Shown in pieces: positions 7,748-57,489 of a DNA stretch of 64,000 nucleotides. Where the stretch lies: the IMG/VR virus record IMGVR_UViG_3300014205_000232, positions 675-64,674 of that record, one strand, 5' to 3'. The notes beneath the pieces were generated by a model. It worked only from the letters and a program-made list of their open reading frames with translations, had not been told where the DNA came from and made no database searches. Source of the stretch: a virus. The translations under genes and the position numbers were made by a program. Numbering within the stretch: position 1 is the stretch's first letter; each line of letters opens with the position of its first letter.

Positions 7748-7778
7748 CCCCCGGTTGAAAAAGAAACCCCCAAAGAAA

Positions 7779-7806
7779 AAGGCAGCCATGAGAGCTGCCT
7801 TTTTCT
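7779..7806 (+). terminator. rho-independent terminator
   Basis: aggcagcc-atgaga-gctgcct followed by ttttc. Confidence 0.6.
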
Positions 7807-8022
7807 TTGGTTAAGAGGGGCCTAGTTCCGTGCCAAAGACGCTCTGCGTTAGGAGTCTGGCCCCGGGATTAACGCGGGCTGGTTTTAGATGCTTGTTAGA
7901 TCCCTGTGCGCGGAGGACCCGGCGGTCTTTTTTGACGTTCTCTTTTTGCTCCCCCGCGAGAGCCAAAAGACGCGAGAAAAAGGGTTCCTCCAGCAGATGT
8001 CGATCCCCCCGATTGGATCGGG

Positions 8023-27536: not shown

Positions 27537-27578
27537 GGAGAGCCTGGAGGACAAAGCCTCCAGGCTCTCCCTTTTTTC
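27537..27578 (+). terminator. rho-independent terminator after the PARP-like gene
   Basis: ggagagcctggagg-acaaag-cctccaggctctcc followed by cttttttc. Confidence 0.7.
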
Positions 27579-29812: not shown

Positions 29813-29827
29813 GGGCTAACCACCCGA

Positions 29828-29868
29828 AACAAAAAAGGCTACCTGCGCAGGTAGCCTTTTTTGTTTCA
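29828..29868. terminator. bidirectional rho-independent terminator
   Basis: aaacaaaaaa-ggctacctg-cgc-caggtagcc-ttttttgttt. Confidence 0.65.
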
Positions 29869-38759: not shown

Positions 38760-38773
38760 GGGAACCCCTGCGA

Positions 38774-38810
38774 TAGAGAAGGCAGCCTTTGATGGCTGCC
38801 TTCTCTATTC
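38774..38810 (+). terminator. hairpin terminator
   Basis: agagaaggcagcc-tttgat-ggctgccttctct followed by attc. Confidence 0.55.
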
Positions 38811-44442: not shown

Positions 44443-45498
44443 ATGAATCCCAGTAGCATTGGCAAAAAAACGGCACCTAGGCAGGTGGATCCCAACTCCC
44501 CTTACCTCAAGAATGTCAATCAGAGGAACTTTTCAGAGTTGTCCTCCTTGATGCGGACTGGGGCTGAAGAATTGGTGCTGGCTCGACGGATGGCCCACCT
44601 GATTAAGACCACCCCGTCACTGGCTCCCGTTTTGACTCCCATGCTCAAAGAAGCAGCCCTGAATTGGCGGGAGGAGTTGGACGCTTTTCATGCCGCCTCC
44701 CATCGGTTTCCGAGCCTAACGGCCGAGACCTGGTCCAACCTCAGTAACTTCAAGAAGTACGCCCTGAGCGTCAAGACCGCTCACGTGGCCCTGTTGCGGT
44801 CCATGGGTTTGACGAAGGAGGCCGTTCGTGACGGTAAAGCCTTCATGGTTTACCACATTGAGGCCGAGGCCAACAAGTCCAAGTTCTACGAGGCTGTGAT
44901 CGTTGAGGAGGAGTTGGGCTACCGCCTTATCCGGCGTTGGGGTGCCCTTACCGACTCCATGGGCACTGGCCGTGTAGACGGGGCTCAGAATGACACACAG
45001 CCTCGCTTCCTCTTCCCGACCCTTATGTCAGCCAAGAAGGCTCTTGAGGAGGTGTACAAAACCCGCATGGCCCATGGCTACATTGACGCCTTTGGACCAA
45101 AGCATAAGACTCCTGATGGCAAGACCCTCCCCATGGGTCAGTACCCCGTAGGTCTCACTCGGACTGTGGGTTTCGGATGGGGTACGCAATCTGTGACCAA
45201 GTGCATCCCTGGTTTGCGGCAGCTTGAGCAGTCCATTGCCTATGCCCGTGAGGAAATCGTCCGCACGGGTAAGAGTGATGAGGTTTTGAACTATCTGTTG
45301 GAGGCTCAAAAGCAGATTTCGGCAGTGGTACATGCAGACAGCTCTATGTCGAACAAGATCCTCTCCGCGGTTGGGTCCGCCATTCGCCGGTTGACTGGGT
45401 CCCCTCGTTTTCTCCCCGACCCTGAGGGTGAAGCCTTGGGCAAGAGTTTACAGACCGTTCAAAAGTACATCCAGAAGCAGCTTTCCCTCTGTTCCTAA
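44443..45498 (+). CDS. hypothetical protein
   Basis: ORF track. Confidence 0.5.
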   Translation: MNPSSIGKKTAPRQVDPNSPYLKNVNQRNFSELSSLMRTGAEELVLARRMAHLIKTTPSLAPVLTPMLKEAALNWREELDAFHAASHRFPSLTAETWSNLSNFKKYALSVKTAHVALLRSMGLTKEAVRDGKAFMVYHIEAEANKSKFYEAVIVEEELGYRLIRRWGALTDSMGTGRVDGAQNDTQPRFLFPTLMSAKKALEEVYKTRMAHGYIDAFGPKHKTPDGKTLPMGQYPVGLTRTVGFGWGTQSVTKCIPGLRQLEQSIAYAREEIVRTGKSDEVLNYLLEAQKQISAVVHADSSMSNKILSAVGSAIRRLTGSPRFLPDPEGEALGKSLQTVQKYIQKQLSLCS

Positions 45499-52870: not shown

Positions 52871-54946
52871 ATGTTGGACCTTGTGGCACGCCTGGAAAAG
52901 GCTCGAAACGACTACTACAACGGCAACCCGACTATGTCGGATGCCCAGTACGACGCCCTCGAAGACGAGTTGCGCAAGCAGAACCCCAACCATCCTTTCC
53001 TGGCCAAGGTGGGATCTCCGGTCCCCCAGAATGGCGCTTGGGCCAAGACCAAGCATGCCATTCCCATGGGGAGCCTGAACAAGGCTCAGGTGGACACCGA
53101 GATCTCTGACTGGCTGAAGGGTTGTTCCTACAAGGCGGGTGAGGCACTCACGATCACTGACAAGTGCGACGGCATTAGTCTTGCCCTGCACTATCGGGAC
53201 CGCAAAATGGTCCAGGCAGTCACCCGTGGGGACGGTCTCGTAGGTGAGGACATCACCCGTAACGTCCTGCTGATGAAGGGGTTCCCCAAGGTACTCCCCC
53301 CGACCCTGTTCGCCGAGAGTGGTCCCTTCCAGACCCCGAATGACGTGTACATTCGGGGTGAGATCATCGTGACCCACACGGACTTCGACACCTTTTTCAA
53401 GGGTGAGTCGAATCCCCGAAACACCGCCTCGGGAACGGCCAAGCGTCAGTCGGATGCGGCCAAGTGCGCGCACCTCACGGTCCTCTGCTACCAGCTCCTG
53501 CCCAACGGGGTCACCTATGGCAAGAAGCAAGAGGAGCTGAAGGCTCTTCAGACGGCCGGCTTCCAGACCCCACAGGTCAAGGTGTGCCACTCGGTGGCTG
53601 AGGTTTTCGATCGGTACGAGAACTACGTAGCCAAGGACCGCAAGGCTCTTGACTATGACATTGACGGGCTGGTCATTGATATCGACAGCACCCCCGAGCG
53701 AGATCGGCTTGGGGATCTCAACGGGCGGCCCAAGGGCAGCATCGCTTTCAAGTTCCCTCATGAGTCGAAGGCTACGGTGCTCCGGGCAATCCGGTGGCAG
53801 GTCGGAAACAGCGGACGAATCACTCCGGTGGCCGAGTTTGACACCGTGTCCCTGGCGGGAGCCAACGTGTCCCAGGCCAGCCTGCACAACATCTCGAACA
53901 TCGACGCCCTTGTGGCCATGATCGGACAGCAGTTTTTTGCAAGTGGCGACAAGATCCGGGTCAGCCGCCGAAATGACGTGATCCCCTACGTGGAAGAGGC
54001 CCTTGAGGCTTACCAGGGGGCCGACGTAGACAGCAAGGTCCTCAAGACTCCGACCAACTGTCCCGCATGTGCCGGCAAGTTGGAGCGAGACGGTGAGTAC
54101 CTCGTTTGTCGCAATGAGGAATGCAGCGCCCAGGCCACGGGGGCACTTCGCCGGTGGGTCAAGAAGATCGGGGTCCTTCACGTTGGCGACAGCCTGTTGG
54201 AGGCAATGGCGGCAGCTTTCCCTTTCATCCTGACGGAGGCTGAGTTTGAGTCCCGCTTCGGTGTGAAGCAGAAGGACTTCACCACGCTCCCCGCCGACCG
54301 ACAGGAAGTGATTGCCGCCTCGGTTATGGATCCGGCGGACCTCTACTGCCTGGACGTGGACGCTGTGGCAGCCCTGGATACGGGCGGACGCCGTGTGGGT
54401 GGCACGGCCGACAAGGCGATCGGCAACCTCATGGCGAAAATGACCATGCCCCTTCAGGTGGTTGTGGGGTCCATTGGGATCCCGCTCATCGGGCGGGATA
54501 TGACCAAGACGATCATTGACGCCGGATACAACAGCCTGAGCCTCATGCTTAAGGCAAGGGTCACCTCCCCCCTGCACCTTCCTGACCGGATTCTCCCGGG
54601 TCTGGCCTCTATCCCCGGAGTGGGTGACACCAAGGCCAAGGCTTTTGTGGAAGGCTTTGAAGCCAAGGTCGGGCTGCTGGCCAAGCTGAACGCAGTTGGT
54701 GTGCGGGTGCAGACAGTCAAGGGCCCCCTGGTGGGTAAGAGCTTCTGCCTGACGGGTTTCCGTGACGCGGCCCTTACGGACGCTCTGGAGCTTGCTGGTG
54801 GTACGGTCAAGAGCAGTGTGTCCAAGGGTTTGGATTTCCTGATTGCCGCAGACCCCAACAGCAACACGGGGAAGGCCCAGACTGCCCGAAAGCTGGGGAC
54901 CAAGGTGATCGGGGTTGACGAGGCTCGCACCATGGCGGGGCTGTGA
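52871..54946 (+). CDS. ligA: NAD-dependent DNA ligase
   Basis: Adenylation motif TDKCDGISL (KxDG), OB and Zn-finger CPACAGKL...CRNEEC, HhH region, C-terminal BRCT FCLTGF...; the antisense 583-aa ORF is rejected. Confidence 0.9.
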   Translation: MLDLVARLEKARNDYYNGNPTMSDAQYDALEDELRKQNPNHPFLAKVGSPVPQNGAWAKTKHAIPMGSLNKAQVDTEISDWLKGCSYKAGEALTITDKCDGISLALHYRDRKMVQAVTRGDGLVGEDITRNVLLMKGFPKVLPPTLFAESGPFQTPNDVYIRGEIIVTHTDFDTFFKGESNPRNTASGTAKRQSDAAKCAHLTVLCYQLLPNGVTYGKKQEELKALQTAGFQTPQVKVCHSVAEVFDRYENYVAKDRKALDYDIDGLVIDIDSTPERDRLGDLNGRPKGSIAFKFPHESKATVLRAIRWQVGNSGRITPVAEFDTVSLAGANVSQASLHNISNIDALVAMIGQQFFASGDKIRVSRRNDVIPYVEEALEAYQGADVDSKVLKTPTNCPACAGKLERDGEYLVCRNEECSAQATGALRRWVKKIGVLHVGDSLLEAMAAAFPFILTEAEFESRFGVKQKDFTTLPADRQEVIAASVMDPADLYCLDVDAVAALDTGGRRVGGTADKAIGNLMAKMTMPLQVVVGSIGIPLIGRDMTKTIIDAGYNSLSLMLKARVTSPLHLPDRILPGLASIPGVGDTKAKAFVEGFEAKVGLLAKLNAVGVRVQTVKGPLVGKSFCLTGFRDAALTDALELAGGTVKSSVSKGLDFLIAADPNSNTGKAQTARKLGTKVIGVDEARTMAGL

Positions 54947-55263
54947 AGTTCAAAACGGAGAAGACAACACTGGGTGGTTTGACCTACTGGGTCGAGTATG
55001 ACCTCCCAGTGTTGGAGCCCTCGAGGGACTGGAAAATAGTCGCTCGGGGTTGTGTCGGCTACAAGCATGACACAGGGCAAGGTTACACCTTGGAAACGGA
55101 GACCAAGGTGACTTTTGGTCGGGATGAGAAACAAGTGCTGGAAGTTGCGAAAAAGCGGGTGACCAAGGACTTGTTTCGAGTAGTAGCTTTCATCGAGAAA
55201 GCTACTGACCCGGAGCAGAATGACCATGCCGACTTTCGAGTACCCCCCCTTGATCTCAGTTGA
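54943..55263 (+). CDS. hypothetical protein (apparent GTG start overlapping the ligA stop)
   Basis: ORF track; non-ATG start, so weaker. Confidence 0.35.
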   Translation: MKFKTEKTTLGGLTYWVEYDLPVLEPSRDWKIVARGCVGYKHDTGQGYTLETETKVTFGRDEKQVLEVAKKRVTKDLFRVVAFIEKATDPEQNDHADFRVPPLDLS

Positions 55264-55414
55264 GCAACAGAACTGCTCACACCGTTGGGACGGTCCGATT
55301 CTCACCTCCGAGGATGGTTTGCTGGAAACGGCCACCTGTTCCTTGTGTCATGTGATGGATCTGGATGAAACTCTGACGGCTTTAGATCATGCTGAGGACT
55401 CTTTGAGTAGCTAA
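55220..55414 (+). CDS. small hypothetical protein
   Basis: ORF track; stop inside promoter box B. Confidence 0.3.
   Translation: MTMPTFEYPPLISVEQQNCSHRWDGPILTSEDGLLETATCSLCHVMDLDETLTALDHAEDSLSS
55384..55412 (+). promoter_or_regulatory. promoter-like motif with no downstream ORF (drives the candidate ncRNA)
   Basis: gatcatgctgaggactctttgagtagcta. Confidence 0.5.
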
Positions 55415-55600
55415 GGGGAGACGGTTAGGGGTTCAGCGGGCTAATGGCTTAAGGCGCGACCTGATCCGAGGGATGACTACCCACGGGGAGGGGACAAGCC
55501 ACCACACCAGAGACACCTAGTCAGTGTTTACCGGGTGGGAGAGTACCCCGATAAGAGGGAGGTCCAGGTGGAAATCCTGGGTGGCCCGCTGAGCCCCTAA
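55413..55600 (+). ncRNA. candidate structured non-coding RNA
   Basis: ~280-nt ORF-free gap. Transcription would start at the 55384 motif. 14-bp closing helix ggggttcagcgggc (55427-55440) pairs with gcccgctgagcccc (55583-55596) with one G-U. Internal hairpin ccaggtggaaatcctgg. Confidence 0.35.
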
Positions 55601-55616
55601 CCAATCCCAACTTAGT

Positions 55617-55650
55617 TGATCATCTCGGCCTCGTTCAGAGTAGTAGTCAT
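55617..55650 (+). promoter_or_regulatory. promoter-like motif
   Basis: gatcatctcggcctcgttcagagtagtagtcatgtag. Confidence 0.5.
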
Positions 55651-55694
55651 GTAGGGGGAACAACCCCCAGGGCAAATGACCCAAGGAAACGAAC

Positions 55695-56153
55695 ATGGAC
55701 ACTCAGATTTTTCGAGACCTGGAGTCGGGACTGTGGAACGAGATCAATCCCGACAAGTGCCCGTGCCAGGGGAACGGCTGGATCCTGAGTGACTGGGATA
55801 CTTGGCATCGGTGCCAGAGGCACGGTGTCAACGTGCCTCACCCGGAGGAAGAGGCCGAATTCAACGTTAAGGCCCACCGCCTGAACCTCTACCGCGATGC
55901 CTTCCGCCAGTACAAGGTCGCGGCTGAGCGCCTGGGTCTGAGGGGGACTTTCAAGGACGCCTGCCTTGCCCACCTGAAGGGGCCGGGCCCCTCAGCTGGT
56001 CCCTCGGCCTGGGTTGCAGCGGCCGAGAAGGTCTTTGTGGAGCTGGGGCAGGCCCGTGCGGACGAAGAGGCAACCCGCCAGGGTTTCAGCTGCGCCCTGG
56101 AGGCCAGCTGGGCTGACGAGGCTGAAAACGACCGGCGGGAAGCCGGTCTCTAA
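55695..56153 (+). CDS. hypothetical protein with Cys/His cluster
   Basis: Promoter motif with a long leader; CPCQGNGW...WHRCQRHG. Confidence 0.45.
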   Translation: MDTQIFRDLESGLWNEINPDKCPCQGNGWILSDWDTWHRCQRHGVNVPHPEEEAEFNVKAHRLNLYRDAFRQYKVAAERLGLRGTFKDACLAHLKGPGPSAGPSAWVAAAEKVFVELGQARADEEATRQGFSCALEASWADEAENDRREAGL

Positions 56154-56160
56154 GGGAAAC

Positions 56161-57489
56161 ATGGATAATCATTGTGGATTCACGGGAACTCGTGAAACCC
56201 TGACGGAGGCTCAAAGAACCACCCTGAAAGTGGTTCTTTTGGCACTCAAAGGTCGGGGATTTACACACCTCCATCATGGGGACTGCAAAGGCGCTGATGC
56301 GTCGGCAGACGCTCTTGCCTTAGAGTTGGGTCTTTTGCGGGTCTCTCACCCCCCAGATATCAACACCCTGCGGGCCTACTGTAAAGCGGAGGAGGTCCGT
56401 ACCCCAAAGGCTTACCTGACACGCAACGCAGATATTGTGGCTGAGTCCGCTGTCATGGTGGCTTGCCCCCGTGACATGACGGAGACTCAAAGGTCAGGCA
56501 CTTGGTCCACCATCCGCTTAGCTAGGAAGAAGGGGGTCAAGTTGTTGATCATCCTGCCTAGCGGGCAAGTCAAGGGGGGTGATCATGTCAGCCCCCCTCC
56601 GAGTAGTACTCCAGTACCAGAAACACTTCCCCCTCAGGTTTTTCAGATGGCAAAAAAGATCCAGATGACACCACGGCACACGGACAAGTACGTCGTGATG
56701 TTCCTATCCTATGGGGCCAATCGTCCGGCATACGGAAATGCTCGGGACGTGGCCATTGGGGACGTCCTCACCTATTTTGAGGAGAGCCGTTTCACGACCC
56801 AGGTCGTGTCCTCAGTGAACGCCGTCGGGTGCAAGGTGGCCCCCATGGTGGTAGGTGACTTCGTTGTGGCTGACGCCGCTACCGTCACCTACGACTCGTT
56901 CTACGAGATCTTGCGGCCCAGGACTTCGATCAGTGGAGACCTGACACCACCTGCCCCTCTCGAAATCGAGGAGGAGGAAGAGGTCACCGAGGATGAAACG
57001 GAGGACGATGAGATCGTAGTGGTGGAGCCAACCCCGGTGGTCGAGAGCACCGAGCCCGAAGAAGACATGCCGGTCGAGACCCCCGTTGAGGAAGAAGACC
57101 CCTCAGTCGAGACCCCCGTTGAGGAGGAGACCCCCATTGAACCTGAGGTAGCGGAGATTGAGGTCCCCGTTGTGCCCCAGGTGGCGGCACCGCCGAGTCC
57201 CGTTGAGGCACCAAAAGTCAAGGCTCCCAAGGCTGACCCGAAGCCCAAGGGGACGGAGGAAAGGGACCCCCGACTCCCCCCCGCGGGCCACTTTTTGGTG
57301 GTCCCCCAGAAGGGTTCGGCTCGGCCCTCGGCGACCCTCGATATGGTCACGGTCCTTGAACAGGGCTTCGAGTATCAGGGAATCTTCTACAAGTCCCTCT
57401 CGGGTCTGGCCAAGACTATCACGGGGAAGGGGGTCAATGGTTTTGCCCACTTCAACCTGACGGAGCCCTGGGTAGACAAGGAGAACTGA
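56161..57489 (+). CDS. protein with N-terminal SLOG/DUF2493-like Rossmann domain and acidic Pro/Glu/Val repeat C-terminus
   Basis: Start at Met50 of the ORF-track frame (MDNHCGFTGTRE...HHGDCKGADA); 33-bp coding tandem repeats PVETPVEEE; an internal promoter motif lies at the domain boundary. Confidence 0.5.
   Translation: MDNHCGFTGTRETLTEAQRTTLKVVLLALKGRGFTHLHHGDCKGADASADALALELGLLRVSHPPDINTLRAYCKAEEVRTPKAYLTRNADIVAESAVMVACPRDMTETQRSGTWSTIRLARKKGVKLLIILPSGQVKGGDHVSPPPSSTPVPETLPPQVFQMAKKIQMTPRHTDKYVVMFLSYGANRPAYGNARDVAIGDVLTYFEESRFTTQVVSSVNAVGCKVAPMVVGDFVVADAATVTYDSFYEILRPRTSISGDLTPPAPLEIEEEEEVTEDETEDDEIVVVEPTPVVESTEPEEDMPVETPVEEEDPSVETPVEEETPIEPEVAEIEVPVVPQVAAPPSPVEAPKVKAPKADPKPKGTEERDPRLPPAGHFLVVPQKGSARPSATLDMVTVLEQGFEYQGIFYKSLSGLAKTITGKGVNGFAHFNLTEPWVDKEN
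56581..56609 (+). promoter_or_regulatory. intragenic promoter-like motif
   Basis: gatcatgtcagcccccctccgagtagtac inside the 56161..57489 reading frame. Confidence 0.35.

Follow-up and report, generated by a model that had tools for sequence, protein, structure and literature searches.

A stretch of viral DNA of 64,000 nucleotides (nt), positions 675 to 64,674 of the IMG/VR record IMGVR_UViG_3300014205_000232 and called the window below, very probably carries an independently transcribed gene for a structured non-coding RNA of a new family. Comparison of its sequence with that of a related contig indicates that the gene is real, conserved, non-coding and located on the plus strand, that its helices and a loop-loop contact covary, and that its central junction resembles that of a transfer RNA (tRNA). 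As to the nature of the RNA, we lean, with some reserve, towards a tRNA-derived scaffold acting in trans.

The initial annotation of the window had described a full promoter motif followed by a gap without any protein-coding frame, and a second promoter motif serving the next gene; all three statements were borne out. The motif GATCAT-N14-GAGTAG occurs in 23 exact copies in the 64-kilobase (kb) window and, when up to two mismatches are allowed, in 29 copies against 3.7 expected, a number reached by none of the shuffled sequences. Its usual placement is 25-50 nt 5' of a Shine-Dalgarno sequence and an ATG, almost always on the strand of the gene, and before protein genes it is usually extended by cTGTnnnGTAg. 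One exact copy lies 12 nt ahead of the closing helix of the RNA, with its GAGTAG running directly into the TAA stop codon (55412-55414) of the upstream open reading frame (ORF). Another exact copy follows the RNA and is separated by 51 nt, in keeping with the usual distance, from the start codon of the next gene at 55695. Between the stop codon and this ATG no plus-strand ORF of at least 30 amino acids (aa) was found. The open frames that cross the RNA are not kept in its homologue (see below), a 25-nt block of the T arm excepted, and a protein-coding reading of the region was rejected on this basis. The gap is plausibly the longest non-coding gap of the window, as had been stated: greedy tiling of ORFs left none larger, but it filled this gap as well, with unconserved reverse-strand ORFs.

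No sigma-70-type promoter and no intrinsic terminator was predicted in 55200-55900. Since the 14-nt spacing of the motif is unlike that of sigma-70 promoters, it is possible that the motif is read by a phage-specific sigma factor or RNA polymerase. Examples of its sites in the window are 6282, 25234, 32024, 55385, 55618 and 62102; it is also found in the metagenomic contigs L007, L008-L011, L150, L152 and L153, and contigs that carry it reach 528 kb. A scan of IMG/VR with a stricter form of the motif, GATCATNTG-N11-GAGTAGNTGT, returned nine isolated chance matches and nothing else.

The plus strand of the element folds at -99 kcal/mol (z = -5.7), and none of 200 shuffles was equally stable; the reverse strand folds at -91.6 kcal/mol (z = -4.9). 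The ends of the RNA are joined by a long helix, P1, inside which a short stem (P2, enclosing the hairpins H1 and H2), a further hairpin (H3) and a T-arm-like hairpin are arranged (Table 1). A closing helix of 14 base pairs (bp) with a single G-U had been annotated at 55427-55440 and 55583-55596. The helix exists, but these coordinates are one base low (GGGGTTCAGCGGGC lies at 55428-55441 and GCCCGCTGAGCCCC at 55584-55597), and the complete helix has 21 bp with two G-U pairs on the plus strand. Only one other comparable inverted repeat (at least 19 nt, at least 95% complementary, more than 100 nt apart) was found in the 64 kb. The clean internal hairpin CCAGG-UGGAAAU-CCUGG, noticed earlier, is present at 55564-55580, and the G/A-rich internal loops mentioned with it were found again in the form of a tandem GA/GA internal loop. 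G-U pairs occur in P1, P2, H1, H2 and the T arm and would become A-C mismatches if the RNA were read from the other strand. For this reason we take the RNA to be read from the plus strand; a reverse-strand RNA was rejected on the same grounds and because the plus strand folds better.

Table 1. Promoter-like motifs and parts of the structured RNA, in coordinates of the window.
Feature	Position	Strand	Description
Promoter-like motif GATCAT-N14-GAGTAG	55385-55410	+	Upstream of the RNA; one of the 23 exact copies in the window
Structured RNA	55423-55602	+	180 nt, counted between the outermost bases of the closing helix
P1, 5' strand	55423-55443	+	Pairs with 55582-55602 over 21 bp; the inner 7 bp are in the place of the tRNA acceptor stem
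Linker A-U-G	55444-55446	+	U and purine in the places of tRNA U8 and R9; consensus xUR
P2, 5' strand GCUU	55447-55450	+	Place of the D stem (positions 10-13); pairs with 55541-55544; followed by AA (places of A14 and R15)
Hairpin H1	55453-55500	+	Inside P2; tandem GA/GA internal loop; 7-nt loop AUGACUA at 55473-55479 (L1)
L1 core UGACUA	55474-55479	+	Exact complement of the L2 core UAGUCA at 55518-55523
Hairpin H2	55502-55538	+	Inside P2; 7-nt loop CUAGUCA at 55517-55523 (L2)
P2, 3' strand GAGU	55541-55544	+	D-stem positions 22-25; preceded by A (place of A21) and followed by A (place of A26)
Single A	55545	+	After P2
Hairpin H3	55546-55559	+	CCC/GGG with loop CGAUAAGA; place of the anticodon arm; least conserved part
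T-arm-like hairpin UCCAGG-UGGAAAU-CCUGGG	55563-55581	+	Joins the 3' strand of P1 directly; best-conserved block
P1, 3' strand	55582-55602	+	Partner of 55423-55443
Second promoter-like motif GATCAT-N14-GAGTAG	55618-55643	+	For the next gene (ATG at 55695), not for the RNA

A homologue was found in the Logan contig L007, which is 102 kb long and encodes a ligase that shares 65% identity with that of the window. An nhmmer search with the window RNA matched L007:17004-17182 (E = 7e-6), within a gene-free gap of 850 nt and 18 nt after a copy of the promoter motif at 16957. The covariance model R1, for which only the window copy was used, recovered the same locus, L007a (17001-17189), with 58 bits and E = 4e-12. 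A second model (R2), built from the window copy and L007a, recovered a further copy that was not part of the model, L007b (17199-17449), which lies directly after L007a (32 bits, E = 7e-7). L007a and L007b are tandem homologues behind one shared promoter motif, and they are followed by a tRNA-like gene in the same gene-free stretch, which gives the RNA a context of stable RNAs. Each of the three copies folds independently into the same architecture.

In the Infernal alignment of the window copy with L007a, 97% of cells were paired and 21 of 60 pairs were changed on both sides; when the 3' partners were shifted by one to three columns, only one to five such changes were counted. An alignment of this kind is fitted to the structure of the model and favours pairing, and the slid controls showed the signal to be much larger than this bias. 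MAFFT misaligned H2 and copy b, and the Infernal alignments (A5 and A6) and a curated alignment (A7) were used instead. A7, a hand-curated, N-padded alignment of the helices only of the three copies, was left unchanged by MAFFT; in it 94% of cells were paired and 22 of 49 pairs were changed on both sides, against one to six in the slid controls. Both-sided changes affected 11 of the 21 pairs of P1 and all six loop-proximal pairs of H2. P2 keeps its GCUY/GAGY pairing in every copy; in two cases a change on one side gave a G-U pair.

Conserved in all three copies are also AGAGYA, the 3' side of P2 with its flanks, the linker xUR (AUG, CUA and GUA) and the T-arm block GGUGGAA. Hairpin H3 varies, with a 4-bp stem and the loop CUCUACC in L007a and a length of about 45 nt in L007b. 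The interior blocks (T arm, loops and junction) are better conserved than the inverted arms. The initial annotation had proposed covariation in related genomes as a check and had named poor conservation, or coding capacity, in relatives as what would speak against it; the homologue in L007 is conserved in structure and not in its reading frames, and helices and loop-loop contact alike covary. The near-identical contigs L001-L003 show no difference over the RNA (100% identity) and were therefore uninformative. The order of genes around the RNA is rearranged between the window and L007, and in both the RNA lies within about 1.5 kb of the genes for a 152-aa protein and a DUF2924-type protein.

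The strands and linkers of the junction follow one another as in tRNA. The closing helix is followed by U and a purine (U8, R9), GCUY (10-13), AA (A14, R15) and an insert; then come A (A21), GAGY (22-25), A (A26), a hairpin and a short linker ending in U or C (position 48), and finally a stem of 5-6 bp with a 7-nt loop that has U1 and A5 (U54, A58) and leads back to the closing helix. The equivalents of U8, A14, R15, A21, A26, U54 and A58, read from the aligned sequences, are present in all three copies, together with the 4-bp D stem and a T stem and 7-nt loop on the acceptor, as expected of a cloverleaf junction. The insert of about 88 nt, which holds H1 and H2, occupies D-loop positions 16-20. 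Common to the RNA and tRNA are the four-way junction with its equal strand order and linkers and the T-arm-like hairpin stacked on the closing helix. The RNA differs from tRNA in the two-hairpin module that it has as its D loop, without G18G19; in its T loop, which is UGGAAAU and not T-psi-C-R-A, with no equivalents of positions 55 and 56; in its acceptor helix, which runs over the whole length of P1 without a single-stranded CCA; and in its unconserved anticodon arm. A 7-nt loop of the anticodon type (CU-CUA-CC) is found in L007a only.

ARAGORN in its default setting reported neither a tRNA nor a transfer-messenger RNA (tmRNA) in the native window and L007 copies, and the Rfam tRNA model had no match at E up to 10 in the window or up to 1 in L007. 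A tmRNA was rejected, since the Rfam tmRNA models were silent as well. When introns were allowed and thresholds lowered, the acceptor ends placed by ARAGORN on the native sequences agreed with our manual placement. Edited constructs were then examined in which the insert was replaced by a standard D loop, P1 was cut to 7 bp and ACCA was added. The edited core of L007a was called a tRNA with anticodon CUA at the default threshold, that of the window was called only at -ps80, and that of L007b was not called; none of the 300 shuffles of each construct was called at either threshold.

The loops of H1 and H2 are complementary to each other. In each of the three copies all six positions of their cores form Watson-Crick pairs. 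L007a and the window copy share UGACUA/UAGUCA, and L007b has UGACCA/UGGUCA, a compensatory change of U-A to C-G. The distance from P2 to L1 (GCUNAA to UGAC) is 27 nt in every copy, and that from L1 to L2 is 44-46 nt. On this sequence evidence L1 and L2 make a kissing-loop contact, which may form inside a single molecule or link separate ones; covariation cannot separate the two modes.

If the loops paired between molecules, the RNA would assemble with itself into rings, chains or cages, as phi29 pRNA, ROOL and GOLLD do, and the assembly would be its functional form. The perfect, covarying complementarity over 6 nt and the constant strand path between the loops, which fits a fixed loop spacing, are in keeping with this, and there are precedents. 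In ROOL, a kissing loop for which covariation had predicted a tertiary contact was found to make a quaternary one (10.1101/2024.12.08.627333). The phi29 pRNA has a long 5'/3' closing helix, a three-way junction and two mutually complementary, covarying loops (PMC4201828); it is phage-encoded like the new RNA, measures about 120-170 nt, and its closing helix and complementary loops have counterparts here, where they lie inside a larger tRNA-like fold. ROOL and GOLLD are likewise phage-encoded RNAs of complex fold in which kissing loops are central, and they often lie beside tRNA genes (10.1101/2024.12.08.627333), as the RNA does in L007.

Against self-assembly, H1 and H2 are adjacent hairpins of similar length on one three-way junction, and the Rfam models of pRNA, ROOL and GOLLD do not match. 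Adjacent hairpins of similar length on one junction usually make an intramolecular loop-loop contact, as in the purine and lysine riboswitches. The pRNA has no similarity in sequence to the new RNA. It differs, moreover, in its 4-nt loop complementarity and in having neither a tRNA-like four-way junction nor a T arm, and it is known only from small phages of the phi29 type, in which its place is on the portal, whereas the genome studied here appears to be that of a large phage with a context unlike that of phi29. ROOL and GOLLD are three to five times larger and have other, well-defined consensus structures. We consider self-assembly unlikely on balance. A bolder form of the idea is that the phage turned a tRNA into a building block. 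The cloverleaf core would then be no more than a rigid, L-shaped scaffold, and intermolecular pairing of the two loops inserted in place of the D loop would give a defined RNA-only ring or cage, or a ribonucleoprotein with a phage protein. This we regard as quite unlikely; if true, it would be a tRNA-derived quaternary RNA assembly, an independent analogue of pRNA, ROOL and GOLLD, and a new family of ornate phage RNAs.

Another explanation is that the gene encodes the precursor of a working tRNA, possibly a suppressor, in which the 88-nt insert would be an intervening sequence of the D loop and the outer part of P1 a removable pairing of leader and trailer. The equivalents of the conserved tRNA nucleotides at the junction, the anticodon CUA called in the edited core of L007a and the presence in L007 of a genuine tRNA gene, a UUA suppressor 11 nt after the same promoter motif, would all fit a precursor. 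However, the anticodon-like arm is the least conserved part: that of the window copy consists of a 3-bp stem with an 8-nt loop that lacks U33, and that of copy b is the long hairpin. The insert, with its fixed spacing, covarying stems and complementary loops, is the most constrained part, the opposite of what would be expected of an intron, and to our knowledge the introns of bacterial tRNA genes are group I introns in the anticodon loop. The lack of positions 55 and 56 in the T loop, the continuation of the acceptor as a perfect helix in place of a CCA end and the silence of ARAGORN and the Rfam tRNA model on the native sequence also speak against a precursor, which we judge very unlikely.

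The suppressor tRNA gene (L007:4290-4370) has the anticodon UUA and reads UAA, which hints at stop-codon read-through or recoding in the phage clade; the ORFs of the window and of L007 look intact with the standard code. The remainder of the gene-free block of L007 after the two RNA copies (17450-17779) folds stably and ends in the tRNA-like gene, which has the acceptor GGAUAGG/CCUGUCC with ACCA, the canonical T loop UUCAAUC and an over-long anticodon arm and was called by ARAGORN at lowered thresholds only. Its 3' acceptor strand could pair with GGACAG in the 5' strand of copy b.

The RNA might also be a cis-acting leader or riboswitch-like element of the downstream 152-aa gene (55695-56153), reached by read-through from the first promoter. 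The two lie on the same strand with no intrinsic terminator between them, and a multi-way junction, a T loop and a kissing loop are features of large aptamers. The closest likeness is to the cobalamin riboswitches: the T-arm block resembles their P3-P4/L4 region (GGGA..CCNGGUGGAAAUCCNGG..CCCGC), a local similarity of about 35 nt around the 5-bp hairpin with UGGAAAU, the size is similar, a kissing loop (L5-L13) is present in both, and about a dozen metagenomic matches to our search patterns had, by eye, the flanks typical of a cobalamin riboswitch. In all cobalamin riboswitches L4 is a 7-nt T loop next to a four-way junction, and in the cobalamin and flavin mononucleotide (FMN) riboswitches this loop consists of five T-loop nucleotides and two more (10.1101/2022.12.26.521914); UGGAAAU fits the T-loop pattern in the same five-plus-two form.

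The order of elements appears to be different, however. In the new RNA the T-loop hairpin is 3'-terminal, and the partner of the CCC that follows it is the 5' end, in P1, where a riboswitch of this type would use a GGG further upstream. This GGG, needed for a cobalamin-type P3, is missing from copy b, and no B12 box was seen on reading the sequence, for which no formal test was made. No cobalamin, lysine or other riboswitch model scored, even at E up to 10: the Rfam models Cobalamin, AdoCbl and AdoCbl-variant were silent at this threshold in 55300-55800 and at E up to 1 in L007, and a cobalamin or lysine riboswitch was rejected. A full promoter motif stands between the RNA and the 152-aa gene. 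In L007 the RNA is parted from the homologue of this gene by the second RNA copy, the tRNA-like gene and a gene for a 249-aa protein, and no such element precedes the other homologues of the 152-aa gene; the RNA is for these reasons not tied to the downstream gene. A leader function is, in our estimate, highly improbable, and the view of the initial annotation that the region holds a non-coding structured RNA of a new kind and not a leader agrees with the homologue behind the same motif, the covariation, the lack of an Rfam family and the missing link to the downstream gene.

An element acting as DNA would account for the 19-21-nt inverted repeat at its borders, its presence in only some genomes of the promoter clade and its tandem duplication in L007. 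It might be a miniature inverted-repeat transposable element (MITE), a site of recombination or an origin bounded by inverted arms of 21 bp, or an RNase III site whose interior has no function. All this is scarcely credible: the element is single-copy in the window by blastn, nhmmer and the covariance models; its arms pair through G-U, which the opposite strand, read as DNA, would have as mismatches; there is covariation in five internal helices and in a loop-loop contact, none of which an inverted-repeat element needs; the interior blocks are better conserved than the arms; and in a general repeat scan, not a search aimed at such repeats, no flanking direct repeat stood out. A paralogous repeat or MITE within the window was rejected for lack of a second copy. 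A retron (msr-msd) was rejected too: inverted arms are present, but the downstream genes encode the Cys-rich 152-aa protein and the DUF2924 protein, and no reverse transcriptase domain was found.

Among the RNAs already described, the YrlA-type Y RNAs are one of the closest parallels. They occur in bacteria and phages, combine a tRNA-like domain with a long 5'/3' stem and bind Ro60/Rsr (PMC4201824). Like them, the new RNA joins a non-coding tRNA-like module to a long end-to-end helix and is probably derived from tRNA without being used in decoding; some YrlA RNAs are, besides, processed from a precursor that holds two RNAs (PMC4201824), and L007 has two copies in tandem. YrlA has its 5'/3' stem where a tRNA has the anticodon stem, and a closed stem-loop for an acceptor; its D and T loops are canonical and are modified by DusA and TruB, and its gene adjoins that of Ro60 (TROVE) (PMC4201824). 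The new RNA differs in that its 5'/3' stem is on the acceptor side, joined to the T arm, and in that both D and T loops are altered. No TROVE gene was found among the neighbours of the RNA or among the other ORFs scanned with Pfam, which were part of the ORFs of the window.

Searches for known families and for further members were negative. In agreement with what the Rfam/Infernal check proposed earlier was meant to establish, no family matched: Rfam 15 gave no family at gathering thresholds over the whole window, ROOL, GOLLD and pRNA included, and in 55300-55800 at E up to 10 it gave three chance-level matches only (10-14 bits, E of about 5-6); L007 16900-17850 gave no match at E up to 1. By its features the RNA is not a member of the tRNAs, tmRNAs, YrlA RNAs, ROOL/GOLLD RNAs, cobalamin riboswitches or retrons, and no description of such an RNA was found in the literature searched.

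Blastn searches of GenBank phages with the region of the window and that of L007 matched only the tRNA-like 3' end of L007; the whole window had no match at the DNA level, and tblastn with the neighbouring proteins found ligases at about 30% identity only. Pattern scans of IMG/VR were made for P1, for the T arm, for the D-side motif, and for the loops combined with the T loop; each returned zero matches. In JGI metagenomes the T-arm pattern occurred at 118 loci, which by eye were coding sequence or cobalamin riboswitches without a P1 partner or loop pair, and none of the 118 matched the covariance models. In GTDB genomes the promoter motif combined with the T loop gave seven matches, against 8.5 expected by our estimate, and none was a member according to R1. 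Related loci were also retrieved by way of proteins, through the 152-aa gene, the DUF2924 gene and nine relatives of the ligase (L004-L011, L130-L133 and L150-L153); the RNA was found in L007 only, and in none of the twelve further loci obtained in this way. Neither blastn nor nhmmer nor the covariance models revealed another copy in the window itself.

Several points weigh against an autonomous, tRNA-derived RNA and have to be set beside the evidence for it. Only three copies are known, in two related genomes, and two of them are a tandem duplicate, so that the covariation rests on few independent events. The contigs L008-11, L150 and L152/153, fragments of about 5-22 kb with the same promoter motif, do not contain the RNA. 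No terminator follows it, and read-through into the next gene is possible. The test with ARAGORN used edited sequences, to which the D loop and ACCA had been supplied, and even so copy b failed and the window copy stayed below threshold. The anticodon-like arm shows no conservation; descent from a tRNA is plausible, with convergence on a four-way junction as the alternative. Finally, no obvious RNA-binding protein is encoded among the neighbouring genes, and no partner was identified.

In the scheme that we favour, a tRNA-derived scaffold acting in trans, the RNA would be transcribed on its own from the clade-specific promoter and would fold into an L shape inherited from its tRNA ancestor. 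Three features of the tRNA would have been rebuilt: D-loop positions 16-20 into the 88-nt module, the T loop into UGGAAAU, and the acceptor into a 21-bp helix without a free CCA end. The two hairpins of the module would be locked together by their kissing loops and probably docked on the T loop, forming a remodelled 'elbow'. That the T loop contacts the new two-hairpin module is a reasonable guess; the 7-nt type of T loop docks onto a receptor loop in the cobalamin and FMN riboswitches (10.1101/2022.12.26.521914). Since the parts under selection are the junction, the T loop and the two-hairpin module, with neither the anticodon arm nor an acceptor end among them, the remodelled elbow is probably the functional surface, offered in trans to a protein or RNA partner. 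The long P1 may protect the ends, or may serve as a processing stem of the RNase III type through which the RNA is cut out of polycistronic or read-through transcripts. Some processing is likely, given the single promoter in front of L007a and L007b and the lack of a terminator after the window copy.

The genes of the window include those for a ligase dependent on nicotinamide adenine dinucleotide (NAD), PARP/WGR proteins, an ADP-ribosylglycohydrolase-like protein, a PAS histidine kinase, PhoH, thymidylate kinase, an endolysin-like protein and a P-loop kinase. Next to the RNA lie the ligase, proteins of 106, 62 and 152 aa, the DUF2924 protein and a Band_7 protein. Among the ORFs scanned, none was recognised as a capsid or terminase gene. 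The promoter motif is frequent in several metagenomic contigs with ligases 57-65% identical to that of the window, one of them 528 kb long, which suggests that the source is a large phage of a poorly sampled clade.

The 152-aa protein encoded downstream of the RNA has the motif CPCxGxGW...WHRCxxH, resembling a DnaJ-type zinc finger; a handful of homologues was found in 5.8 billion proteins, and that of L007 is 53% identical (tblastn). The DUF2924 ORF (442 aa, 56161-57489) contains an exact copy of the promoter motif at 56581-56606, with an ATG about 45 nt downstream, and its counterpart in L007 is two genes of 142 and 307 aa. Given this internal motif and ATG and the two separate genes, the ORF of the window may also be expressed as a separate C-terminal product.

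Four genes with NAD-related functions form a group in the window: 10039-11019 (ADP-ribosylglycohydrolase-like), 25886-27529 (PARP catalytic and WGR domains), 44443-45498 (second WGR protein) and 52871-54946 (NAD-dependent ligase). The related contigs L132 and L004 carry PARP, CinA and NUDIX genes. A sequence of 18-20 nt, GGAACACCAAGGTTCCCT, occurs in direct copies at 20542-20561 and 20571-20588 and as its reverse complement at 20739-20758, 150-177 nt downstream. These repeats surround the divergent intergenic region 20525-20635 and may be a set of operators or another long-range helix. Perfect hairpins of 15-21 bp at 29826-29867, 7770-7810, 38773-38808 and 27536-27571, some with runs of A or T (for example GAAACAAAAAAGGCTACCTGC/GCAGGTAGCCTTTTTTGTTTC), look like bidirectional terminators; the RNA gene has none of this kind.

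ROOL and GOLLD have recently proved to have unexpected architectures, and YrlA, tmRNA and the tRNA-like structures of viruses are cases in which the tRNA fold has been reused. The new RNA would join both themes in about 180 nt, with a tRNA junction whose D-loop/T-loop elbow has been exchanged for a covarying kissing-loop module. This size suits direct structural and biochemical work. The RNA carries its own promoter motif and appears to come from a poorly sampled clade of large phages with a distinctive promoter, and the clade-wide motif is useful for annotation by itself. Were a function to be found, be it that of a decoy for host factors that bind tRNA, an assembly scaffold or something else, it would be a new use of a tRNA-derived RNA by a phage.

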